Source: a virus
Lineage: Duplodnaviria > Heunggongvirae > Uroviricota > Caudoviricetes
Reading direction: 5' to 3' (one strand)
DNA length: 64,000 nt
IMG/VR virus record: IMGVR_UViG_3300021431_000083
Shown here: piece after piece, positions 12,943-30,344 of the stretch
How positions within the stretch are numbered: position 1 is the stretch's first letter
How the letters are laid out: every line of letters begins with the position of its first letter
Made by a program: the position numbers and the translations under genes
Notes under the pieces: generated by a model
Database searches by the model: none
The model's input: the letters and a program-made list of their open reading frames with translations, nothing else
Told to the model about the DNA's origin: nothing

Positions 12943-13905
12943 TTATCTTCCCATACTTTCAGGAAATTTTTTCCAACTAATTAAATTTTCAAGTTCCTCA
13001 ATCTTTTTGCGAGCTTGTATCAATTCAAGTTCAAGACTATTTGTTGTTATACCAGACTTTCCTTCAATTAATTCTTTGGTAAGACTACGGCTGATTAAAT
13101 CATAAAGAGTTTTATCCAAGAGAGAATCCATTGAAGGATCATTCTCATTAGGACAATCTTTGCGGAAATCATCAGCTATTTTAACAATGCTTTCCATTAA
13201 TTCATCTGCTTTAATTTCCGCTTGTTCTTTAGATAATCCCCATCCATTCCGTTTACACTCCAAGAGAGAATCACGAATATTGCTATTTTTAAGATAAATA
13301 CAATCTTTATAAGGTCTACCTTCGATATACCACTTAATAAAATAATTAATGCGGGCTAGGTGTGATAACTGCTTTGGGTCATATCCAAATTTTTCAATCC
13401 AGGGCATGCGGCTTGGGTATTCATGGCACAAAGCATGTCGTTTCTCACTCGCCATACCTTTCATACAAGAAACTGCGGCATAAGGATTAATCCTTGCCAA
13501 CTCTTCCGCATTCGCCCGCAACCTATTCCAAAGATCATAATACTTATTGTTTACAATAAAATAATCAGTAAATAGAATCTCAACAAAATTAATATTTGAC
13601 TTGCGGAAAATCTTAAAGTACTCCCGCACATCCTTACAATCAACATGCTCTTGGTTATCTGGCATTTCAAGAGTATGGCTAATTGGTTTGTGGTTAAGTA
13701 CAATATCTTCTAACGAAGGAATAACTAATACTTTAGAATCAATATCAGACTCCGCATCAGCCATATTGTAATTTTGACTCCCCTGTAAACAAATAACAAA
13801 CCAATCTTTGTTATAAGTAGTTATATAATGAAAAAGATGTTCATGCAAACGTTTATTAATGTCAATATCATTTAAATATGGCATTACTATCTCCTTTAAA
13901 AGCAC
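12943..13905 (-). CDS. pol-beta-superfamily nucleotidyltransferase-like protein
   Basis: G-S-x(11)-D-x-D signature: GSQNYNMADAESDIDSKV. TAA stop. Confidence 0.45.
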   Translation of the reverse strand: MLLKEIVMPYLNDIDINKRLHEHLFHYITTYNKDWFVICLQGSQNYNMADAESDIDSKVLVIPSLEDIVLNHKPISHTLEMPDNQEHVDCKDVREYFKIFRKSNINFVEILFTDYFIVNNKYYDLWNRLRANAEELARINPYAAVSCMKGMASEKRHALCHEYPSRMPWIEKFGYDPKQLSHLARINYFIKWYIEGRPYKDCIYLKNSNIRDSLLECKRNGWGLSKEQAEIKADELMESIVKIADDFRKDCPNENDPSMDSLLDKTLYDLISRSLTKELIEGKSGITTNSLELELIQARKKIEELENLISWKKFPESMGR

Positions 13906-15665: not shown

Positions 15666-16601
15666 TTACGAAGTCGCCGTCTTTGTATCCTCGTTCATCA
15701 GAAACATTAGTGGTAAAAAATTCTGAACACTGTTTCCATTCTGGCCATTCATTAACATAGCCATAAGCATCATCTGCATAGAGGGAGAAGAGGATGATAG
15801 ACCACCAAGACCAGGATTCTCCTTGTTCATTAGCATAAGAACTAAAGGGAGTGCATCATTACTCTTACCATCATTATTTCCCAAAAGAAGGAAAGGTAGC
15901 ATATTTCCAAACGGATTATCTTCGTTTGCGGTCGATGCTGTAAAATCTACAAGACTTACAATCTTAGTAATAAAATCAAAACCAAAAATTGACTTTGTAG
16001 GAAGAATTTTCTTAATCTCACCATCTGTTACATCAATAACAGAAATAGTCTTTCCTCTTGCCTTTGTAACAAACATAACATGACGATTATGGATAATTGC
16101 ATCACCTTCAGCTACGTCTTTAATAGCAACAGGCATCATATAAACAAAATTGTCACAACCAAAATTAATTAAATCAACATTAACAATTTCGTTGTTTTCT
16201 TTATCATAAGACACCCATTCACCATTACTATTCTGCACCGCAATACCAAGATGTGAAATCTTAGCACGATCGCCGCACGGACCAAAATTAAAATTCTTCA
16301 TAATATTCATTTTTTTATTCTCTTTCTCTTGGTTTTCTTTTAATTCATGAATAAATCTAATGTCATCTGAAGTTATCTCTTCTCCATCCAGAACAAGTTT
16401 ATTAGAAGTTGAACAAATATTGGGTTTTAAATTAATATTGTTTCCACTAATACTAAATCCATTTCCTTTAATTCCATCTTTATCAATAGTAATTTTAGGA
16501 TTAGAAGATGTTGTAGTTGTAACTGATGGATTATAATTTCAATTTGCAGTAATATTGTCCCAATAATAATTTGTAGTATCTGTAGTATAATTACTTATCA
16601 T
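15666..16601 (-). CDS. hypothetical protein, 311 aa, needs code 4 (one in-frame TGA near 16549)
   Basis: ATG at 16601 with AGGAGGA RBS. Hand translation MISNYTTDTTNYYWDNITANW(TGA)NYNPS... runs in frame into the track ORF 15666..16310. Confidence 0.5.
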
Positions 16602-16702
16602 CTATCCTCCTTTCTTACAAGTATATTATAATATATAAAATATACCCTGTCAAATAAAAAAATAGGGCAACTATAAAAATATAGCTGCCCTGTTATATTC
16701 TC

Positions 16703-16796
16703 TGCGGAAGATGCAAGATTTGAACTTGCACTAGAATTCTCGTCCTAGGCTACGCATTAGCAGTGCGACACTTTACCATTCAGTCAATCTTCCATA
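16703..16796 (-). tRNA. tRNA-Ser(GCU), type II with a long variable arm
   Basis: Acceptor GGAAGAT/ATCTTCC. Anticodon loop CTGCTAA. T-arm GCAAG-TTCAAAT-CTTGC. Confidence 0.6.
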
Positions 16797-17100
16797 GAAA
16801 ATATCGCGGGTGGCGCCTTTACGCACTTTATCAGGACTCGCAACCTGCCGCTGGAAAACCCGCTTCTTTTGGTTCACCGGAGAAGCTCTTTGCCTATGAT
16901 TACAAACCGGTTTATAATATTCTCGGAGGGTCTACCATTTACACCCTAACTCGCTTACCGAGTTCGCATGAGCTTCAGCATTCAATTAGATCTGTCACCA
17001 TCTTTATGGCGCTTTCTTTATACCACTTATCATGTGGCTGCGGTGACTAGTACGCATTTAGGAAAAGAAAGCATAAGAAAACCCTCCTACTCAGTAATTA

Positions 17101-17175
17101 TATAGTCTGGAGTCGAACCAGTGTCTCTCTGGGCATAACCATAAGCGCTCTACCGTTAAGCTATCTCTATAACAC
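17101..17175 (-). ncRNA. tRNA-like element (D-arm GCTTAACGGTAGAGC, T-loop TTCGACT). No canonical acceptor or anticodon pairing found by hand.
   Basis: Partial cloverleaf only. May be a pseudo-tRNA, a split tRNA, or part of a larger structured RNA. Confidence 0.3.
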
Positions 17176-17400
17176 CTTTCGTTCGCTACTTACCCCGTCG
17201 GACTTTCGCTACACACCTAGGTTTTATTAATGTGTCTGCAGGTGTATTAGACACTCCAGCAGCTTTTTACGTCTTCACTTTATTTGGACAGCTACCTTCC
17301 GCAGTAGTATGGCGACATGACTTTCGTTGAAGAGGACTGCCGCAAGCGAACATTATACACCAATGATTTTTATCTTCCTGGTTCCATCACCCTTCACAGA

Positions 17401-17470
17401 CAGCCAGATTGGACTCGAACCAATACCCTAGCCCTTGCGGGCCGATGCTGACCAATTACACCACCAGCTA
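17401..17470 (-). ncRNA. tRNA-like element: acceptor with G-U pairs, T-arm ATTGG-TTCGAGT-CCAAT, but a GCCC-GCAA-GGGC GNRA hairpin where the anticodon arm should be
   Basis: 70 nt. Not a standard tRNA. Confidence 0.3.
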
Positions 17471-17871
17471 TCTCCAGTTTACTTTCACCTGTGCTATGAA
17501 TGTTTTTAGAGCGCCATTATTTCTATAGCGGAGGCCAGTGGTACAAACATCATAACCATATCTTCCCGCTTGATAGTTTAGTTTGAAAGGACTATCAACC
17601 TTATGTGAGAATGGAAAACCCATCTCTTTCGCACTTCGTTTTAGAAAACGAATAATTAAACATTCTTACCTTCGACTTAGGTTTACTCGGTACGTGCCTT
17701 CTCGTTGTATCCCGACCAATTCCTGTGGTAGCTACTCCACACTCACGTTTTTCGCTATGGGTACCTCTTCCCCACCCGCGTCTAGGCCGTCTCTCTGAGC
17801 AGTTTCTGCAGTCATACTCTCAGTTGATATTGGCGAGAATGTTTAACTTTCCCTTTTCTTTATATATATAT

Positions 17872-17912
17872 TATAACATATTTTTTATTCAGTTGTCAAG
17901 TTTTATTTTAAG
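17872..17912 (-). promoter_or_regulatory. consensus promoter module (approximate). It points into the noncoding island and tRNA-Ser.
   Basis: atatattataacatattttttattcagttgtcaa. Confidence 0.45.
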
Positions 17913-17992
17913 GCTTGGTTATTTTTCCCTTTAAACTAACCGCCCTTCTACAGGACAGTGACTGATTCGAACAATCATCTCCCTTACCTTAT

Positions 17993-18030
17993 ATATATAT
18001 TATAGCATAAAAATTGAACAATCGTCAACA
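17993..18030 (-). promoter_or_regulatory. consensus promoter module (approximate), in tandem with the previous one
   Basis: atatattatagcataaaaattgaacaatcgtcaa. Confidence 0.45.
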
Positions 18031-18113
18031 AATATTTTTAAACAAGTCTTGCCGCGCTTAAACGATCAGCCCACAAGAGGACCGAGCCTGAGTCGAACAG
18101 GCATTTGTTTATA

Positions 18114-18740
18114 TTACCAAGCTACATAATAATCAGTAATACCTTCATTACAACCACTATCAGATACAATACAAGTACCTTTACTACCTTCAAAAGTAGT
18201 ACCTTGCGGCATATCACTAGCCGCAACTACATAATATCCTTCGTCAGTACGATAGAATCCTTCATCATCTACTGTCCATTGGTCAGTATCTTGATGATAA
18301 AGAACATTAGATGAATAATATGTTTCTGTGCGGCCATCATAATAGTTAACGCCAGACTCTTGAGTTAAACCAGTACCATCACTATATTCTTGACCTTGAG
18401 TAACAACATCAGCAGGTTCTTCTTGAATAGTATCAACAGACTCTTCTTGAACATCAATATCAACAGATTCTTCTTGAATAGGCTCTGTTGATATTTCTTG
18501 AACGGGGTCTGCCGCAACTTCTGATACTGTTGTTTCTACTTTTGGAACACTATATTTTTTAGCTTTCTCCAAGAGATCAACCATATCTTTATTTGTTACT
18601 GTTCGCGGTTCAGCAATATCTTCTATATTTGAAAACTCAATTTTAGCTTTCTCTTGGACAATCTTTTGCGGTGAAGAGACACAGCCAATGTTGAACACAC
18701 ATAACACAATCAAACTTATAATGATGATTCGTTGCTTCAT
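18114..18740 (-). CDS. putative lipoprotein (signal peptide plus lipobox NIGC)
   Basis: N-term MKQRIIIISLIVLCVFNIGCVSSP. Acidic low-complexity central region. Confidence 0.55.
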   Translation of the reverse strand: MKQRIIIISLIVLCVFNIGCVSSPQKIVQEKAKIEFSNIEDIAEPRTVTNKDMVDLLEKAKKYSVPKVETTVSEVAADPVQEISTEPIQEESVDIDVQEESVDTIQEEPADVVTQGQEYSDGTGLTQESGVNYYDGRTETYYSSNVLYHQDTDQWTVDDEGFYRTDEGYYVVAASDMPQGTTFEGSKGTCIVSDSGCNEGITDYYVAW

Positions 18741-20950: not shown

Positions 20951-21027
20951 TGGCACCGCATATAGGACTTGAACCTATAACAAAGTAGTTTAGAAGACTA
21001 CGGCTCTTCCTCTTGAGCTAATGCGGC
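20951..21027 (-). tRNA. tRNA-Arg(UCU)
   Basis: Acceptor GCCGCAT/ATGCGGT. D-arm GCTC-AAGAGGAA-GAGC. Anticodon arm GTAGT-CTTCTAA-ACTAC. CCA encoded. Confidence 0.65.
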
Positions 21028-21036
21028 TTATTATAT

Positions 21037-21113
21037 GGCACCCGCAGTCCGAATCGAACAGACGCCTTCTTGATTTGGAGTCAAGCTATACTTCCAATTA
21101 TACGACACGGATG
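21037..21113 (-). tRNA. tRNA-Trp(CCA). The 5' side is irregular and the acceptor needs three G-U pairs.
   Basis: Anticodon arm CTTGA-CTCCAAA-TCAAG. T-arm GTCTG-TTCGATT-CGGAC. CCA encoded. Confidence 0.5.
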
Positions 21114-21121
21114 TTTATTGT

Positions 21122-21197
21122 TTGGTACCGAGCATGGGCCACGATCCCACATCTCCGACATTAAGAGTGTCGCGCTTTGCCAATTAAGCTAACTCGG
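21122..21197 (-). tRNA. tRNA-Lys(CUU)
   Basis: Acceptor ACCGAGT/GCTCGGT. Anticodon arm CGACA-CTCTTAA-TGTCG. Unusual T-loop ATCGTGG. Confidence 0.55.
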
Positions 21198-21200
21198 TAT

Positions 21201-21464
21201 TGGTTGCCTGGACGGGATTTGAACCCGCAACTAATGGATTACATACCACTACTATTTTCATAGCCATTTCGTTTGTGGTCTGGACTTTATCTTCACCATA
21301 TTTTAAAACTTAGGCGGCTCGTGTAAAGTCTCTACACACGGTTTCCCTTGCTCGGTATTACCATTTTACAGGTTTCACCGACTTAGCGAGCTTATTCACT
21401 TATAAGTTTCCTTATAAGGCTTCCAATCGAAAGTCCACTACGCTTCCGTTGCGTCACCAGGCAA
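21201..21464 (-). tRNA. split tRNA gene, probably tRNA-Lys(UUU). 5' exon about 21432-21464, 3' exon about 21201-21241, separated by an intron-like insertion of about 190 nt in the anticodon loop.
   Basis: 5' half: TGCCTGG-TG-ACGC-AACGGAA-GCGT-A-GTGGA-CTTT. 3' half: TAA-TCCAT-TAGTT-GCGGG-TTCAAAT-CCCGT-CCAGGCA-A-CCA. Acceptor and anticodon stems pair only across the insertion. Confidence 0.5.
21242..21431 (-). other. putative group I intron in a tRNA anticodon loop
   Basis: The 5' exon ends in U and the insertion ends in G before the 3' exon. It contains AAGATAAAGTCC, close to the group I P7/S element AAGATATAGTCC, plus GGGAAACC and GACTTTA elements. Confidence 0.45.
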
Positions 21465-21950
21465 TATCTTATCAAAATCATAATCTTTAAAAAATTTTAT
21501 CCCTGAAGTTTGTCCATTTTTAGTTGGTTCAATCCTTAAAGAAATAGTTTGACAACTACCAATATCTTTAATTGGTACTAGAGCAATTATATCTCTATTT
21601 TGATTATAAAATACAAAATAATCTACATCTTTTTCATAAGTATCTAAAGACTTATTTGTAGTATGATTTTTAGAACTTCTACAATAGCATCTAATACTTC
21701 CATTAGCTTCTTCATTTGCGGTTTTTACTTGGATACGATTTAGTTTACCACCAAATTCAGCAATCATATCATAACGTTCATTGTCTCCTCAAGGAAGAGC
21801 TACTGGAATATTACGACGTTGAAATTCAAATAACGCTTTAGCTTCAGAAATATTACCTTTAGTTTTACTATTCATAATTACCACACTTTCTCCACACTCA
21901 CTAATAACCGACCAAACAGGTGGTGTGGATTCACTTTTCAATAAGCTCAT
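21438..21950 (-). CDS. PD-(D/E)XK nuclease-like protein, 170 aa, needs code 4 (one TGA). Its 3' end overlaps the tRNA 5' exon.
   Basis: Motif ALPW(TGA)GDNERYDMIAEFGGKLNRIQVK (D ... E-x-K). Lies between tRNA-Asn and the split tRNA. Confidence 0.45.
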
Positions 21951-21982
21951 GACTTCTTATCTATTTTGGTCGGATATTTAAC

Positions 21983-22058
21983 ATGGCTCCCAGTACTGGA
22001 TTCGAACCAGTATAACGACATTAACAGTGTCGCGTCCTGCCGTTGAACGAACCGGGAA
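21983..22058 (-). tRNA. tRNA-Asn(GUU)
   Basis: Acceptor TCCCGGT/ACTGGGA. D-arm GTTC-AACGGCA-GGAC. Anticodon arm CGACA-CTGTTAA-TGTCG. T-arm ACTGG-TTCGAAT-CCAGT. CCA encoded. Confidence 0.65.
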
Positions 22059-22098
22059 TAAAACTAAAGTCTTTCTGGACTTTATTAAACAAGCATAT

Positions 22099-22183
22099 AG
22101 CTACCCTGTGTCGCGGGGGTCGGATTCGAACCGACGTTGATGCCGACTTATGAGGACGGTGAGTAACCACTACTCCACCCCGC
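22099..22183 (-). tRNA. tRNA-Met or Ile2 (anticodon CAU)
   Basis: Acceptor CGCGGGG/CCCCGCG. Anticodon loop CTCATAA. T-arm GTCGG-TTCGAAT-CCGAC. Slightly long variable region. Confidence 0.5.
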
Positions 22184-22194
22184 GTCACGAGGTG

Positions 22195-22407
22195 CTAATC
22201 ATCATCATAATTAAAATAATCTTCTGGATGCAATAAATAATCTATATATTCACTTGCTTCTTCATATGTATCAAAACTACCTATAACTCGAAATCTTGGA
22301 GAATATATGTCATGAATACTGCGGACAGTATAACAGCCACAATAAAAACCATTAATTTGTTCATCACAAACAATATATTCTTTAAGCATGTTATTTCCTT
22401 TTAACAT
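22195..22407 (-). CDS. hypothetical protein (70 aa)
   Basis: Intact ORF with a consensus promoter upstream at about 22405-22448. Confidence 0.45.
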   Translation of the reverse strand: MLKGNNMLKEYIVCDEQINGFYCGCYTVRSIHDIYSPRFRVIGSFDTYEEASEYIDYLLHPEDYFNYDDD

Positions 22408-22409
22408 TT

Positions 22410-22445
22410 ATATTATATCATATTAGCTTAACAATAGTCAAGTTA
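22410..22445 (-). promoter_or_regulatory. consensus promoter module (TTGACT, 18-nt spacer, TATAAT)
   Basis: Read on the minus strand. Confidence 0.5.
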
Positions 22446-22449
22446 ATTT

Positions 22450-22812
22450 TTATTCATTATAAGTATAAGTTACTTTTTCAGGAATCCATAAATATGGCCA
22501 TCCAATAAAATCGTCTAAAGTAACAACAATAAAGAAATCTTTTCCAACTTCTTTACACAATTGCGGTAAAATTACACTATGCATGTAATGATAATGTTCA
22601 CTTTTTTCTTCTTCACTCATATTAAAAAAATTACTGTCTATATCATATTCAAAATAATCTTCGTCATAGTATTTTCCGCCATGCCATGCTTTAAAACGCA
22701 TATATGGAATTTTAACAGTAACTAACATAATTCTCCTTTGGTCGCGGAGGGTGCTAAATATATTGCCATTTATATCCATAAGCAGTTTTTCTTTTTCCTC
22801 TACACACTCCAC
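22450..22812 (-). CDS. hypothetical protein (120 aa); start uncertain because it overlaps the next gene
   Basis: Intact ORF. Confidence 0.4.
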   Translation of the reverse strand: MECVEEKEKLLMDINGNIFSTLRDQRRIMLVTVKIPYMRFKAWHGGKYYDEDYFEYDIDSNFFNMSEEEKSEHYHYMHSVILPQLCKEVGKDFFIVVTLDDFIGWPYLWIPEKVTYTYNE

Positions 22813-23365
22813 TTATATGAGAACTACTATCAGGTTTATTAATAAATCTCGCAGCTTCTCTCGTAGATTTAAAAGTTTTTATAATCTCATTTGTTTTTAT
22901 ATCAATCATCGCAACAGCTTTCTGCTGCTGTTCTTGAACAGAAGGAATCAGAACATTAAATTCTTTACAAGCAGTTCTAACAGTATTTTTAGAACAATTA
23001 AAATAATCTTGGACCTTTTTTGAGTTTTTTAATTCTTTCATTTTATTTGCTATAGCTTCATAATCATAATAGCGTCTACTATCTCCACCTAAAGTAGCGT
23101 TATATCCATTATTATAAGTATCTAATTTTTGAATCCAATATTGTTCACGTTCATTTAGATCTTTTTCATCACATTCTTCTAATTTATTAATAATGAAATT
23201 ATCTACTCCATATTTATTTAAAGCTCTACAAATCGGTCTAGTTTGATTTTGTTTATATTTAGCATCATGTTGATGCATCTGCCATCTGCGATGAATAGAT
23301 TGACAAGTTTGTCCCACATACTGTTTTTTATTTATTTTATTCGTTATAACATAAATAAAACCCAT
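22754..23365 (-). CDS. GIY-YIG homing endonuclease (I-TevI-like)
   Basis: N-term GFIYVITNKINKKQYVGQT (GIY ... YVG). Basic C-terminal DNA-binding region. Sits directly beside the tRNA cluster. Confidence 0.6.
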   Translation of the reverse strand: MGFIYVITNKINKKQYVGQTCQSIHRRWQMHQHDAKYKQNQTRPICRALNKYGVDNFIINKLEECDEKDLNEREQYWIQKLDTYNNGYNATLGGDSRRYYDYEAIANKMKELKNSKKVQDYFNCSKNTVRTACKEFNVLIPSVQEQQQKAVAMIDIKTNEIIKTFKSTREAARFINKPDSSSHISGVCRGKRKTAYGYKWQYI

Positions 23366-23423
23366 CTCTTCTCCAAATTCTTATTATAACAAAAGTATCA
23401 TCACTTTTGGAGGTAGTGTCTAT

Positions 23424-23499
23424 GGTATCAGCAGCGGGCTACGATCCCGCGTTTCTACCTTGAAAGGGTAGTGTCCTAGTCCAACTAGACGATGCCGAC
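23424..23499 (-). tRNA. tRNA-Glu(UUC)
   Basis: Acceptor GTCGGCA/TGCTGAT with G-U pairs. Anticodon arm CTACC-CTTTCAA-GGTAG. T-arm GCGGG-ATCGTAG-CCCGC. CCA encoded. Confidence 0.55.
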
Positions 23500-23502
23500 A
23501 TT

Positions 23503-23575
23503 GGTCGCTATGGAAGGTAACGCTCCTCCGTCTTGGCGTTATCAGCACCCTGCTCTACTTTTGAGCTACATAGCG
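23503..23575 (-). tRNA. tRNA-Ile(GAU)
   Basis: Acceptor CGCTATG/CATAGCG. D-arm GCTC-AAAAGTA-GAGC. Anticodon loop CTGATAA. Unusual T-loop AGCGTTA. Confidence 0.5.
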
Positions 23576-23576
23576 T

Positions 23577-23651
23577 TGGCTTCCTCTTCAGGACTCGAAC
23601 CTAAACTAAGGGCACCAAAAACCCTTGTGCTACCAATTACACCAAGAGGAA
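23577..23651 (-). tRNA. tRNA-Gln(UUG)
   Basis: Acceptor TTCCTCT/AGAGGAA. Anticodon arm AGGGT-TTTTGGT-GCCCT. T-arm TTAGG-TTCGAGT-CCTGA. Confidence 0.55.
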
Positions 23652-23708
23652 ATATCAGATATTAGTATTAACCATTACGAACCACGTGGAGGTTTCTGAT
23701 TCTCGTAA

Positions 23709-23794
23709 CTACGGATGGTGGGACTCGAACCCACAAACCTTGCGGCAACGGATTTTGAGTCCGTCGTGTTTGCCAATTTCACCACACCCGCACT
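23709..23794 (-). tRNA. tRNA-Leu(CAA), type II
   Basis: Acceptor GCGGGTG/CATCCGT. Anticodon arm ACGGA-CTCAAAA-TCCGT. Long variable arm. T-arm GTGGG-TTCGAGT-CCCAC. Confidence 0.55.
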
Positions 23795-23988
23795 TAAGAT
23801 TCAATTAATTTAAATTGAGTTGTATAATAAGTACCGCAATGGTCACATTGACCACTACCATACTTTAATTCAAAAGAAGCACCACACTTAGGACAAGTTA
23901 TAGGATATACTTCTACAATTTCACATTTAAGAGCATATGTTTTACCACCAAAAGAAATTTTACTTATATATCCATCAACTTGTTCCAT
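23794..23988 (-). CDS. small zinc-ribbon protein (CPKCG ... CDHCG). Start moved to the internal Met (MEQVDGY) to avoid the tRNA.
   Basis: The track ORF 23794..24045 runs into tRNA-Met. Confidence 0.4.
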   Translation of the reverse strand: MEQVDGYISKISFGGKTYALKCEIVEVYPITCPKCGASFELKYGSGQCDHCGTYYTTQFKLIES

Positions 23989-24011
23989 ATGTAATCCTTT
24001 ATATAGTGAGA

Positions 24012-24086
24012 TGGTGCGGGAGACAGGAGTTGAACCTGCTTCCAATCGATTATGAGTCGAGTGCTCTACCGTTGAGCTTCTCCCGC
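24012..24086 (-). tRNA. tRNA-Met (CAU), second copy; possibly the initiator or elongator partner of the first
   Basis: Acceptor GCGGGAG/CTCCCGC. D-arm GCTC-AACGGTA-GAGC. Anticodon loop CTCATAA. T-arm CAGG-TTCAACT-CCTG. Confidence 0.55.
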
Positions 24087-24087
24087 A

Positions 24088-24175
24088 TGGTCCCGCGTCT
24101 AGGTAACGCTCCTAGCCAGCATTAAAGCAACAGTTTTACAGACTGCCCCGTGTCTTTAACGGAATACCGCGGGAT
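24088..24175 (-). tRNA. tRNA-Tyr(GUA), type II
   Basis: Anticodon arm GCAGT-CTGTAAA-ACTGT. 14-nt variable arm. T-arm CTAGG-AGCGTTA-CCTAG. CCA encoded. Confidence 0.45.
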
Positions 24176-24176
24176 A

Positions 24177-24251
24177 TGGCCAGGCGTACGGGAATCGAAC
24201 CCGTGATAATGGTTAGACAGACCATTGTGATAACCGCTTCACTAACGCCCG
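24177..24251 (-). tRNA. tRNA-Asp(GUC)
   Basis: Acceptor CGGGCGT/ACGCCTG. D-arm GTGA-AGCGGTTA-TCAC. Anticodon arm ATGGT-CTGTCTA-ACCAT. T-arm ACGGG-TTCGATT-CCCGT. Confidence 0.65.
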
Positions 24252-24253
24252 AC

Positions 24254-24329
24254 TGGAGCTGGCGACAGGAATCGAACCCGCAACCTAGTGATTACAAATC
24301 ACTTGCGCTACCTATTGCGCCACGCCAGC
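24254..24329 (-). tRNA. tRNA-Thr(UGU)
   Basis: Acceptor GCTGGCG/CGCCAGC. D-arm GCGC-AATAGGTA-GCGC. Anticodon arm AGTGA-TTTGTAA-TCACT. T-arm GCGGG-TTCGATT-CCTGT. Confidence 0.65.
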
Positions 24330-25619
24330 AAAATAAAAGCGTTGGGTAAGGTGTAACGCGACCACCGCATGTAAAATTATTTTATGTCTAATCGACATGC
24401 TCGCAAAGACAGTAGGATTGCTCCTTTTGGAAGATATATCTATTATGGCTGATATGACTTTAAATATATATAAATATATCCTCCAAAAGAAGATACTTTC
24501 ATAGGAACCACCCTCATCGTAGAGAAAGTATAAACTACAGAAGGTTCTAACGCTCTTAACCTACAAGCGATCTTTACTTTACGCATAGACTTGCGGCAAG
24601 ATCATTACCCTATCCTGCATGGGATGTACTTGATTTCGTTCAAACACATAAAGACGGAAATCATTTTGGTTCAGGTGATTTCAAAACCAGAAAACCACAA
24701 TTTTATTTTATAGTCTAATTGGTTCATACTAGACTGGCATTAAGTACGCCTAAGAAAACATTTTATAAATGTTCTCTAAGGCATAAACTGTTTATCAGTT
24801 ATTTCAGCCCTTTAAGCTACACTAGAGAGTATGTTAGGCTACTCTCTTTTTATATACCCTGCCTAACCAGAGACGCCGTTTTATTTAATGACGCGAACGG
24901 ACTAGGAACTTGGTAATCACCTTACGGTATCCGCCATTTTCCATACCACTTAATTTCTTAAGGGCTATTACGTCAATTCCTTCAAACAGAATAGTTGAAG
25001 ATATACATGCCAGCCTTCGCTGTACCGCATCTATTTACTGGATATTCGATCACGCAGGAGATAAGGCTGAGTATGTCGGAGCGACCGTCATACTTCTTAC
25101 CCCAGCCGTTAAGGCCATCTCTACTGTAGGAGTGATTACCTACAACTTTCACACGTCATTCAGCATTAATATATTCTCCTAAATATTCATTGATATAAGG
25201 AGCTGCTTTGTGCTACTCGAACCTTGCTCTTGTCTTATTCTTTCTGTTACCAGAAAGTCAACAGCTCAATCTCCTTATTGGTATTTCCAGCTTTCTCTTA
25301 TTCAGCACCACCTGTTAATAAGTGTTCTGGATTCTTCCCCACTGGGGCGTCTATTGCGGAGACGACAATTTGCAAGTATCTTTCCTTAGCAAATAGACTA
25401 AGCGCATTCTTCATTTTGTTGGTAGTTCCTACCTTCTAAAGCAAACCTCACGATTCACCTTAAAGCCACACAGCCAAGTATCCCAGACTGTATAAACTCA
25501 TTGAGAAGAACCCTCAGCACGTTGACACCGCTCTGCACTGAGTTGCACCTAAATCTTCAACTATTCTGTTTTCAAAGTTCTTAGGTTAAGAAACCTAATA
25601 TTAACTCTCTCAACCTTAT

Positions 25620-27061: not shown

Positions 27062-27098
27062 ATAATATTATAACATAATTATATTATAGCTGTCAACT
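27062..27098 (-). promoter_or_regulatory. consensus promoter module (approximate)
   Basis: aatattataacataattatattatagctgtcaa. Confidence 0.4.
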
Positions 27099-28362
27099 AA
27101 GAGTTCATAACTTGCGTTAATTCGATATAATCAATCATATCTCCGTACTTAACACCACGGAAATAATCAACCTTCTGGCCTAAGAATTTAGCACGTACTG
27201 CTCCTTGATACCGCTTAGGCACAACTTTATCAACAGCAATCATAAAAGTCTTGCGATCATCAGTATAATCTACGAAATCACGAGTAAGATTATACCACTT
27301 CATAACACGTTCATCGAACATTTGTACGTACTTATAAACATTATCAGCCTTTTCCTTAGCTTGCGGTTGATATGCAACAGGAATCTTTGAATAAAAATCA
27401 TCCCAACGACCTTCACGAATAGCTGCAATTATAGCGTTGGGAGAAACCATCTTACAAAGAGCATGGTGGAGCATAACATAATCATTATACTTGAGCTTAT
27501 ACTTCTGTCCGTCTACATCAATAACATATCCCTCACCCTCATTAGCCTTACGACCATCATTAAGGGCATCCTGATAAGCTTCTTCAAAAGTCATATCAAA
27601 AATTTTAACATGCGGCACATCATACTTTTCTGCGACTTCTACAACATCCTTATAAGGTAGTTCTACACCATCCTCTACTCGTCGCATTCCAAGTAAATGC
27701 AAACCGAACATTTGTTCGTTATATTGTACAACATGAACATCATCAGGGAAAATACCTTCAAAAATGAAAGTATAATCTCGATAATCCTTTACCATCTGTA
27801 CAGCATTATTATGACTAAACATCCAATGATAATAATTAGCAAGACGATAAGACATATTGGTATCAAGAGCTTGTGACCCAGACATTACCAAATCATTCTT
27901 ATACCAACGAGCACTACAAAGAGAACCGTCAAGCTTATCAGTAATTTCTACTCGGGCCGCATTCTCTATCTTCTCTTGGACTATAGGAAGCTGAGTCTCT
28001 TCTCGCTCATTAATATTAAAGAATTTGCGGAATGGAGTAAGAATAAGACAATCATTAAGTACATCAATTACAACTGAACGACACTCACGATAAAAACCAT
28101 CATAAGCATCCCAGTCAATATCAAGATCATTATACTTAATAAGTAGCATACCCATGCTTTCATTGAGAAGCAAGGGTTCAATCATCTTAGAATAATAATG
28201 ACGCTTAGGATGACCATGATTTCCGAGAGTCCATACCCAATAGGAAAGACAATTAGTAAAGGAATCATCGCGGCCATACTGCCACAAAGCATCCTTGCCG
28301 CACACCTTAACAAATTCATTCTTTACTTCAGTGAAAAAATCTAAAGGTTGATTCCAAGACAT
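27097..28362 (-). CDS. ATP-dependent RNA ligase (Rnl1-like)
   Basis: Motif I KLDGS (T4 Rnl1 has KEDGS). Motif IV EGYVI. Motif V KLK. Confidence 0.55.
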   Translation of the reverse strand: MSWNQPLDFFTEVKNEFVKVCGKDALWQYGRDDSFTNCLSYWVWTLGNHGHPKRHYYSKMIEPLLLNESMGMLLIKYNDLDIDWDAYDGFYRECRSVVIDVLNDCLILTPFRKFFNINEREETQLPIVQEKIENAARVEITDKLDGSLCSARWYKNDLVMSGSQALDTNMSYRLANYYHWMFSHNNAVQMVKDYRDYTFIFEGIFPDDVHVVQYNEQMFGLHLLGMRRVEDGVELPYKDVVEVAEKYDVPHVKIFDMTFEEAYQDALNDGRKANEGEGYVIDVDGQKYKLKYNDYVMLHHALCKMVSPNAIIAAIREGRWDDFYSKIPVAYQPQAKEKADNVYKYVQMFDERVMKWYNLTRDFVDYTDDRKTFMIAVDKVVPKRYQGAVRAKFLGQKVDYFRGVKYGDMIDYIELTQVMNS

Positions 28363-29417: not shown

Positions 29418-30344
29418 TTACATCAACCCTAGAAACTTGCGGCCTTCTGCTTTAATCAAGCCATTAAGTGCGGCAAAGTCGATTTGAGGATTCTTAGCAC
29501 GTTTACAAAAATCTACAATATTCTCCTCAAGAGTATCCTTCCAAAGTAAATTAAGAAACATACCAATAAATTTGCCATTACCAGGAACATACTCTTCACC
29601 GCAAGCCAGGGCAGTTTTAGCCTTAGCTTTCTCAAGCTCAGATTGAGTCAGATAGCGATTAATGAAATCTTGTTCAACTTCGCCAGCCTGAACAATTCTC
29701 TTTACTCTTGGAGTGTCAGGTCTAAAATCTTCCCGTACATATTTTGCTACAGCATAGCGTCCATAGCAATTTACATAATTGTCTCTACGAATCACAACAC
29801 CCTCTCCAAGAGTATCAGTTCCTTCAAGAAGAAAAGTATTCTCATTCGCAACCTTGATAATATCTTCAAGTGTAGGATTAGTTAACGTGGCAAGAAGTTT
29901 TACACGATAATGAAGTAGATCATACATAATAAGTGCAGCTTCAAGCTCATCCCAGGTTAGATATTTTTCAGTTTCACGATTGTAAATATCAAAAATCCAA
30001 AGTTTATTTGCAGCTTGTTCAGTATACTTTTTTATTGCACCAACTTTTCCTACTGACCATTCTCCATAAATAATCCAATTAGGATTAGCTTGACATGCTT
30101 TAACAAGCAATTGAGCTTCTAATCTTTTAGATTCCATCCAAGCGGCAAAACCAGCATTGTCATTCTCAATAGAAATTTCACGTTTGCGGCTACCATAACG
30201 CATACGACCATCTTCATCTGCCCATACACAACTATTACAACCATCAAGCTTGGCCGTGATTTTTACTTCACCATTTAAAATATTATCAACTTCTGTTTTT
30301 CCTAAACGTTCAACGTGAAGGTAAGGTCTAAAACAATTGGTCAT
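29418..30344 (-). CDS. ATP-dependent polynucleotide ligase (second nucleotidyltransferase-family ligase)
   Basis: Motif I KLDGC. Motif IV EGVVIRR. 308 aa. Confidence 0.5.
   Translation of the reverse strand: MTNCFRPYLHVERLGKTEVDNILNGEVKITAKLDGCNSCVWADEDGRMRYGSRKREISIENDNAGFAAWMESKRLEAQLLVKACQANPNWIIYGEWSVGKVGAIKKYTEQAANKLWIFDIYNRETEKYLTWDELEAALIMYDLLHYRVKLLATLTNPTLEDIIKVANENTFLLEGTDTLGEGVVIRRDNYVNCYGRYAVAKYVREDFRPDTPRVKRIVQAGEVEQDFINRYLTQSELEKAKAKTALACGEEYVPGNGKFIGMFLNLLWKDTLEENIVDFCKRAKNPQIDFAALNGLIKAEGRKFLGLM

Follow-up and report, generated by a model that had tools for sequence, protein, structure and literature searches.

A large, pseudoknotted non-coding RNA family next to phage tRNA genes, a proposed analogue of GOLLD and ROOL

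The window analysed here, a 64,000-nt stretch of DNA from a virus of the Caudoviricetes (IMG/VR virus record IMGVR_UViG_3300021431_000083), contains on its minus strand an island without open reading frames (ORFs), located between upstream promoters and a tRNA-Ser(GCT) gene. Our comparison with related phages shows that this island encodes one large, promoter-driven and pseudoknotted non-coding RNA (ncRNA), a member of a family of ~0.75-1.06 kb that combines conserved domains with a mosaic linker, is linked to tRNA genes and is absent from Rfam. We favour the view that it represents a new class among the giant, ornate RNAs of phages, by analogy with GOLLD and ROOL, from which its function is inferred. 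Taken as a whole, the observations are probably best explained by a single structured ncRNA of ~1,056 nt, of an uncatalogued family, acting as a GOLLD- or ROOL-like particle that serves the tRNA programme of the phage.

The body of the RNA comprises 1,056 nt, in a window in which all genes read on the minus strand. No credible ORF lies between the stop codon of an upstream ORF of 208 amino acids (aa), at 18114, and the tRNA-Ser(GCT) gene; within the body no open stretch exceeds 73 codons (minus strand) or 81 codons (plus strand), and each frame is interrupted by 13-31 stops, in line with the original prediction, made from the letters of this DNA alone, that the island is free of ORFs. The sole minus-strand ORF, of 51 aa, falls within a stretch that is deleted in the related locus L003, and a protein-coding reading was rejected on these grounds. 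An elevated GC content had also been claimed for the island. We measured 0.427 for 16797-18110, with 0.345 for the window and 0.32-0.33 for the flanks; the claim holds for the RNA body (0.45) but not for the upstream 250 nt (17862-18110, 0.337), which contain two promoters and two small tRNA-like modules and lie outside the body. Both of the consensus promoters proposed to fire into the island are found within it on the minus strand (Table 1). A strong counterpart of promoter P2 is present in every family member, with a score of 12/12 in L034 and 10/12 in L027, and L026, L027, L030 and L034 each have one strong upstream promoter. The tRNA-Ser gene that had been placed at the downstream end of the island exists, but its position (16793..16704) is just outside the island as then delimited, which started at 16797. 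Directly past the terminator that follows this gene, there is a further 12/12 consensus promoter at 16625-16653 (minus), from which the protein genes that come next (15666-16310 and beyond) are presumably transcribed anew.

Homologues of the RNA, ~13 loci in all, were recovered from phage metagenome contigs. The downstream 214-aa protein, used as bait, led to the IMG/VR contigs L002 and L003, both of which carry the RNA, and a protein search with the same neighbour together with contig look-ups added the close relatives L022 and L023 and the diverged loci L026, L027, L028/L029, L030 and L034. In the diverged loci the 214-aa protein is 60-64% identical, and across all members its identity is 52-99%. 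A scan of IMG/VR with five conserved exact 17-19-mers returned L002 and L003 only, while exact-word scanning of metagenomes gave three more truncated close relatives and two coding chance matches. The same type of scan over GTDB genomes found no homologue and one coding chance match, blastn and megablast searches of GenBank phages found no homologue of the RNA, and the upstream 208-aa protein retrieved no relatives when used as bait. A lone match in Bacillus phage G was discarded, as it is a look-alike promoter upstream of gp631 and not RNA homology. Literature searches returned no description of such an RNA. Structure analysis was carried out on 10 members (the window, L002, L003, L022, L023, L026, L027, L028, L030 and L034), whose core length ranges from 756 to 1,057 nt; the alignment of the 5' domain, A5, holds nine sequences. 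A covariance model, R1, made from the central 131 nt of the 5' domain, has a single match in each family locus, at 101-157 bits (144 bits in the window). It has no match to ROOL or in a GOLLD locus, and none in the more distant loci L004-L006, L031 and L033, in which nhmmer likewise detected no homologue.

The strongest evidence for a conserved structure comes from the 5' domain. Its fold, derived from the nine sequences, consists of a long closing helix, four hairpins and the helix CGUG/CACG, and includes a GGGUG..CCC hairpin. RNAalifold on A5 assigns compensatory double changes to 24/61 pairs; when the pseudoknot is included in the fold, 97.2% of cells are paired and 25 of the 60 pairs are altered on both sides. 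The covariation score of the domain is 0.383, compared to 0.160 for shuffles (0/500 reach the observed value) and at most 0.081 with slid partners. The pseudoknot stem UCGG/CCGA itself varies among members, appearing as UCUG/CAGA, UCCAGG/CCUGGA and CCCAG/CUGGG. Visual inspection suggests, for every lineage, a further pairing between the 5' leader and the loop of the hairpin that follows it; it would be a second pseudoknot in the domain and was excluded from the pair counts. A long-range pairing between TACCGAG in the 5' domain and CTCGGTA in the 3' module y was dropped, since the local pseudoknot covaries and the y anchor is missing in L028 and L030. The base-pair covariation in relatives supports the earlier suggestion of a candidate structured RNA or other ncRNA, and the comparison with homologous phages that had been proposed as a check finds the structure conserved. 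Motifs quoted at that time find their place in it as well: GCACGTACCGAG forms the 3' strand of a covarying helix and a pseudoknot strand, GCACGUACCGAG lies in the pseudoknotted centre, and GAAAGTCC falls in a short hairpin that covaries and is capped by a GACG loop.

One hairpin loop of the 5' domain, AGUAGCUA, holds the 6-nt palindrome UAGCUA; the stem beneath it covaries, with five variants among the members. Loops of this kind form symmetric kissing contacts in OLE and GOLLD (PMC12286853), and we regard AGUAGCUA as a candidate for a symmetric kissing loop between two copies of the RNA.

The 3' part of the RNA is built from the modules y, z2 and z1. Module z2 runs in the order S1 ACCGG, conserved loop UUUGUAAUCAUAGGCAAAGAG, S2 CUUCU, S1' CCGGU, a loop, S2' AGAAG and the conserved GGGUUUUCC. 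In eight sequences compared by script, S1 and S2 keep their positions relative to the invariant loop UUYGNAAUCAUAGGCAAAGAG and are perfectly Watson-Crick paired throughout, despite six variants of S1 and four of S2; a seventh S1 variant occurs in L034. Module z1 is present in 10/10 members, two positions of its second hairpin have changed in a compensatory manner (C-G to U-A, G-C to A-U), and an optional hairpin is inserted in it in L026, L028, L030 and L034. The order of the two modules is z2-z1 in six members (the window, L002, L003, L022, L023 and L030) and z1-z2 in the other four (L026, L027, L028 and L034), a swap which indicates that the 3' core is built from self-contained modules.

Table 1. 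Positions of the RNA body, its parts and the flanking elements in the window (coordinates in reading direction).
Feature	Position	Strand	Description
U1	18102..18037	minus	tRNA-like module between the upstream stop codon (18114) and promoter P1; minimum free energy (MFE) z-score -2.4
Promoter P1	18028..17999	minus	TTGACG-18-TATAAT, TG extension, 11/12 in consensus scan; kept in close relatives
U2	17991..17909	minus	second tRNA-like copy; leader of P1 transcripts; MFE z-score -2.9 (0/200 shuffles as good)
Promoter P2	17899..17870	minus	TTGACA-18-TATAAT, TG extension, 12/12 in consensus scan
Large-RNA body	17861..16806	minus	between the upstream promoters and tRNA-Ser(GCT)
5' domain	17861..17570	minus	~290 nt; best conserved part, aligns across all members
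Closing helix P1 of 5' domain	from 17836; 3' strand 17666..17655	minus	alignment fold
Hairpin P2 of 5' domain	17823..17793	minus	alignment fold
Pseudoknotted centre of 5' domain	17747..17687	minus	helices 4-6
Hairpin loop AGUAGCUA	17736..17729	minus	invariant in all members; stem covaries; enclosed by helix CGUG/CACG
Terminal hairpin of 5' domain	17598..17570	minus	invariant 13-nt loop CCUUUCAAACUAA; alignment
Linker	17569..17085	minus	hypervariable; most deleted in L003 and L022
Linker module common to L030 and L034	17569..17528	minus	sequence comparison
tRNA-like unit 1	17470..17400	minus	RF00005 31.2 bits, above gathering score 29; ARAGORN 'tRNA-???', anticodon (ca)
Hairpin GTGTCT...AGACAC	17254..17232	minus	window-specific; absent from L002 and L003
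GACG-loop hairpin module	17212..17184	minus	sequence comparison
tRNA-like unit 2	17170..17099	minus	RF00005 27.1 bits, below gathering score 29; not called by ARAGORN
Module y	17084..16922	minus	GGGUUUUC...GAAUGCUGAAGCUCAUGCGAACUCGGUAAGCGAG...CCCUCCGAG; in most members; 38 nt identical among close relatives
Module z2	16911..16853	minus	H-type pseudoknot
Module z1	16851..16806	minus	closing helix GCGG/CCGC, hairpins CAGG-UUGCGAGU-CCUG and GUGCG-UAAAGG-CGCC
tRNA-Ser(GCT)	16793..16704	minus	ARAGORN and Rfam (59.7 bits); 12 nt past module z1
Intrinsic terminator	16691..16664	minus	12-bp stem, then T run; closes the transcription unit

To place the RNA among catalogued families, Rfam 15 was run at gathering score on the window and 11 loci, and permissive scans (E<=10) were made of window segments 16500-18400 (1.9 kb) and 16790-17100 (311 nt), of L027 17540-18815 and of L034 13440-14790. 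The Rfam scan, which the original prediction had proposed as a check, found no catalogued family other than tRNA on the island at gathering score, and the permissive scans of the window, L027 and L034 segments gave no match to GOLLD, ROOL, transfer-messenger RNA (tmRNA), RNase P, introns or riboswitches. The GOLLD model RF02032, which has a gathering score of 150 bits and a universally conserved 3' domain, thus had no match at E<=10 in the window, L027 or L034, whereas a positive control, the GOLLD of Streptococcus phage LYGO9 taken from the alignment supplement of the cryo-electron microscopy (cryo-EM) paper (PMC12286853), scored 260.6 bits. Likewise, the ROOL model RF03087 (gathering score 99.1 bits) had no match on this RNA or its homologues, while it matches elsewhere in the window with 334.5 bits and in L022 with 297 bits. 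Comparison of family members to LYGO9 GOLLD and to the window ROOL by nhmmer --max revealed no similarity; the alignments to GOLLD had negative bit scores only.

In GOLLD as in ROOL, conserved domains surround a disordered linker, which points into the interior of a cage and is able to hold tRNAs (PMC12286853, PMC12990946). Both share with the new RNA the tRNA niche, the size class and such a tRNA-capable linker (PMC12286853, PMC12990946, PMC5737381). With GOLLD the new RNA has in common a phage or prophage location beside tRNA arrays and a length of 0.7-0.85 kb or more (PMC12286853, PMC12990946), as well as two domains with a variable linker that sometimes holds tRNAs; these traits of location and linker are also those of ROOL and so are not diagnostic. 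Could the RNA then be a highly divergent GOLLD, homologous to RF02032 and beyond the reach of the model? The same architecture of two domains and a tRNA-capable variable linker (PMC12286853, PMC12990946) speaks for this, as do the tRNA-Ser(GCT) that directly follows the LYGO9 GOLLD, just as it follows the window RNA, and short look-alike strings such as GCGAAAGUCC versus the GOLLD consensus GCAAAAGUCU. We nevertheless consider it improbable, given the absence of any covariance-model or sequence similarity, including the failure of the model of our 5' core to find anything in the GOLLD locus, and a reversed pattern of conservation: GOLLD has a conserved 3' and a variable 5' domain, whereas here the 5' domain is best conserved and the 3' part is modular, permuted and subject to loss. 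The inserts in the new RNA are, moreover, mostly tRNA mimics that do not decode, and not real tRNAs. The notion of a tRNA-Ser module common to the window and LYGO9 was rejected as well, the two tRNA-Ser genes being just 62% identical.

To ROOL the new RNA is similar in niche, in its pseudoknots and in its variable linker, and a true ROOL lies 7 kb away in the window, heading a tRNA array. It differs in having no model or sequence match and in being longer, and since both occur in one genome, the new RNA is not a simple replacement for ROOL. As the RNA fails to match the models that define these families, we class it as an analogue of GOLLD and ROOL and assign it to neither.

The linker that separates the 5' domain from the 3' modules has very different content from member to member. 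L003 lacks ~480 nt of the middle of the RNA, including unit 1, and its flanks are near-identical, with compensatory changes. The two tRNA-like units said to fail canonical folding are both present in the window according to RF00005, unit 1 also according to ARAGORN, and so is the strong hairpin GTGTCT...AGACAC (Table 1). Unit 1 has a 7-bp acceptor stem, a D arm, a T arm UUGG-UUCGAGU-CCAA and a 5-bp 'anticodon' stem; its anticodon loop is replaced by a 4-nt GCAA tetraloop (GGCCC-GCAA-GGGCU), which is the GNRA hairpin noticed earlier in place of an anticodon arm, and it has no 7-nt anticodon loop. With a score above the tRNA threshold, the 7-bp acceptor stem and a canonical T arm, unit 1 is, from known RNase P determinants (PMC4201824), a plausible substrate for RNase P or RNase Z, at which the long RNA could be cut. 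In its cloverleaf, acceptor stem and T arm it resembles processing signals of the tRNA or MALAT1-mascRNA type, from which it differs by the GCAA tetraloop and the missing anticodon loop. It is kept in L002 and L017; as it is absent in L003 and L022 and other members have other tRNA-like modules, it is not part of the core function. Unit 2 is degenerate, with mispaired acceptor and T stems, no 7-nt anticodon loop and an MFE z-score of +0.27, and it is confined to the window lineage, being missing in L002, L003 and L017. The linker of L023 carries a unit-1-like cloverleaf that has, instead of an anticodon arm, an insert containing another T-loop hairpin. In L026 to L034 the linker holds a closed module that runs from a GNRA hairpin through a T arm and a 7-bp hairpin to a D-like arm.

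These features leave the idea of intron-containing or split tRNAs unsupported: unit 1 has a 4-nt GNRA loop and neither anticodon nor intron, unit 2 is a lineage-specific degenerate insertion, and both sit in the hypervariable linker of one ~1-kb RNA whose core is not tRNA-like. A functionless mixture of spacer DNA and tRNA genes in decay might be expected to look like the degenerate, lineage-specific unit 2 and the T-loop hairpins scattered through the region. This reading is, however, effectively refuted by compensatory changes in more than 30 base pairs, along with two pseudoknots, invariant loops of 8-21 nt, and dedicated promoters that are kept across relatives in which the neighbouring protein is just ~60% identical; the covariation excludes dead tRNA genes.

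The upstream elements U1 and U2 are tRNA-like in a different order. In U1 a T-loop hairpin, GCCUG-UUCGACU-CAGGC, is followed by a 7-bp hairpin and a D-like segment, and the whole is closed; the element is kept in L002, L003, L014, L022 and L023, with covariation in the T stem, the hairpin and the closing helix. U2 consists of GAUUG-UUCGAAU-CAGUC, then ACUGUCC...GGGCGGU, closed by UAAGG/CCUUA, and its stems covary too (GAUUG/CAGUC versus AAUUA/UAAUU). U1 with promoter P1 and U2 with promoter P2 form a tandem duplication of ~129 nt. On inspection of 11 copies of the U module from eight loci, the T, acceptor-like and closing stems covary and the D arm is loosely defined; one of the copies lies inside the 5' domain of L027.

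The Y RNAs of the YrlA type have the topology T arm, closed acceptor-like stem, D arm and terminal helix (PMC4201824). U1, U2 and the linker modules of the relatives share this permuted tRNA order, closed by an 'anticodon-stem' helix, and some relatives that carry the RNA encode Ro60. A Ro60 (TROVE) gene is located 3-5 kb upstream of the RNA in L027 (12949-14409), L028 (11914-13368), L030 (11318-12769) and L034 (7148-8611). On the other hand, YrlA RNAs are ~100 nt long with genes next to Ro60, whereas the modules here are parts of, or leaders to, an RNA of ~1 kb. It has to be asked whether the RNA is a giant Y-RNA-like scaffold, in which tRNA mimics and core tether a phage Ro60 protein and RNA-repair enzymes. 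The YrlA topology of the U elements and of the L026-L034 linker modules (PMC4201824), the TROVE genes of four relatives, and the two RNA ligases and the RlaP-type enzyme encoded in the window would all suit such a role. The window itself, however, has no TROVE gene in its 64 kb by tblastn, no Y RNA or YrlA model matched at E<=10 in the window region or the L027 and L034 segments, and the Ro60-strand motif GNCGAAN0-1G occurs once (GUCGAAGG, 17676) in 1.3 kb, near the chance expectation of ~0.6, and is lost in L030, which does encode TROVE. We thus consider a Y-RNA-like scaffold very unlikely.

The RNA is consistently found 5' of tRNA genes. The next gene is tRNA-Ser(GCT) in the window, L022 and L023, whereas L002 and L003 have tRNA-Cys and then tRNA-Ser there; in L026, L027, L030 and L034 the RNA heads a tRNA array; a scan of two loci, L027 and L034, found no terminator between RNA and tRNAs. 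Tandem strong promoters, as found here at the RNA, are typical of stable-RNA operons (rrn, tRNA). Position, promoters and the lack of an intervening terminator are what one would expect of a cis-acting leader of a tRNA operon, that is, a platform for processing, folding or antitermination with no life after cleavage. We find this explanation unlikely, as the window RNA precedes a single tRNA whereas the main 13-tRNA array is led by ROOL, as a conserved, pseudoknotted fold of 750-1,050 nt far exceeds the needs of known leaders, and as the core is conserved while the downstream tRNA changes (Ser; Cys and Ser; Thr-Asp-...).

Two further observations were made in the relatives. Between the large RNA and the first tRNA, a conserved, hairpin-rich non-coding stretch of ~300 nt (e.g. 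GUCGUUGCGGGCACCGCGAUAAGACGUUAAACUAUUUCCAGGUGCGG) is found at 18490-18810 in L027, 18430-18770 in L030, 14520-14790 in L034 and ~9000-9370 in L026; no Rfam family matches it, and the window lacks it. The tmRNA model has 80-nt matches (64-67 bits, model positions 1-374) within the tRNA arrays of L030 (19626-19707) and L028 (20740-20819), which look like the tRNA-like domain alone.

The 13-tRNA array of the window, at 20951-24329 (minus), is arranged in three clusters with small ORFs between them, and includes a tRNA at 23505-23575 that Rfam scores at 48.6 bits and ARAGORN does not call. Directly upstream of the array lies a full-length ROOL (24991-25566, minus), an arrangement also seen in L022. 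In the diverged relatives L026-L034, no ROOL was found within the fetched 12-21 kb, and there the new RNA takes the position at the head of the array. Three genes, all on the minus strand, are located at 27097-28362, 29418-30344 and 12943-13905 and encode two RNA ligases, one of the T4 Rnl1 type (PF09511) and one matching PF09414, and one nucleotidyltransferase. The latter is 75% identical to an L027 gene with a weak precomputed match to RlaP (PF10127); our own Pfam scan assigned it to no family. The combination of RNA ligases, nucleotidyltransferase and tRNA array suggests a programme of tRNA repair and replacement.

Based on these results, we propose how a GOLLD- or ROOL-like particle might arise and act. 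Promoter P2 would drive the RNA itself, while promoter P1 would give an isoform with the tRNA-like leader U2. The RNA would be made abundantly as the 5' part of a tRNA transcript, and a cut by RNase P at the downstream tRNA-Ser would free, or define, its 3' end. Those tRNA-like units that have a 7-bp acceptor stem may be further sites of RNase P cleavage, of the kind seen in the YrlA of Mycobacterium smegmatis (PMC4201824). The mature RNA could then be an RNA-only architectural particle, plausibly a homo-oligomer, as is thought for GOLLD and ROOL; its scaffold would consist of the conserved domains, with tRNA-like cargo displayed on, or enclosed by, the variable linker. Such a particle would serve the tRNA supply and repair programme of the phage, with its 13-tRNA array, ROOL, two RNA ligases and RlaP-type nucleotidyltransferase.

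Several points weigh against this picture. The phage already carries a ROOL, which leaves a redundancy to explain. Homo-oligomerisation would follow from analogy and from one palindromic loop, and a 6-nt palindrome in an 8-nt loop has a chance expectation of ~5%. All members belong to one phage lineage, as judged from the shared 214-aa neighbour (52-99% identity), so part of the covariation signal reflects few independent events. Furthermore, the anchor sequence of module y was not found in L028 or L030, which have other sequence at that position, and the fold as resolved covers the 5' domain and, in the 3' part, z2 and z1.

We also speculate, more tentatively, on a bolder version, which we hold to be possible but rather doubtful: that, next to GOLLD and ROOL, the RNA makes up a third and independent class of giant phage RNAs that assemble by themselves, here into a homo-oligomeric shell whose linker shows or encloses tRNA mimics (the anticodon-less cloverleaves and the YrlA-like permuted modules). 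These might act as a decoy, tether or store against host defences that target tRNA, a job distinct from that of ROOL. On such a third-class reading, the co-residence with ROOL in one genome would mean two particles with distinct jobs.

To our knowledge, just a handful of RNAs from bacteria or phages combine a length above 500 nt with a complex, conserved fold. GOLLD and ROOL, two of these, were recently shown to be RNA-only cages, and their function is unknown. The position of the cargo in the new family offers natural 'swap experiments' of tRNA-like modules, pointing to tRNA-binding factors as partners, and the order of z1 and z2 is a natural circular permutation of RNA modules, of use to cryo-EM work and to the prediction of RNA structure. 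Another family in this niche, unrelated to those two, would give an independent handle on what such RNAs do, as it is found together with ROOL in one phage and, in the relatives, holds ROOL's position at the head of the tRNA array.

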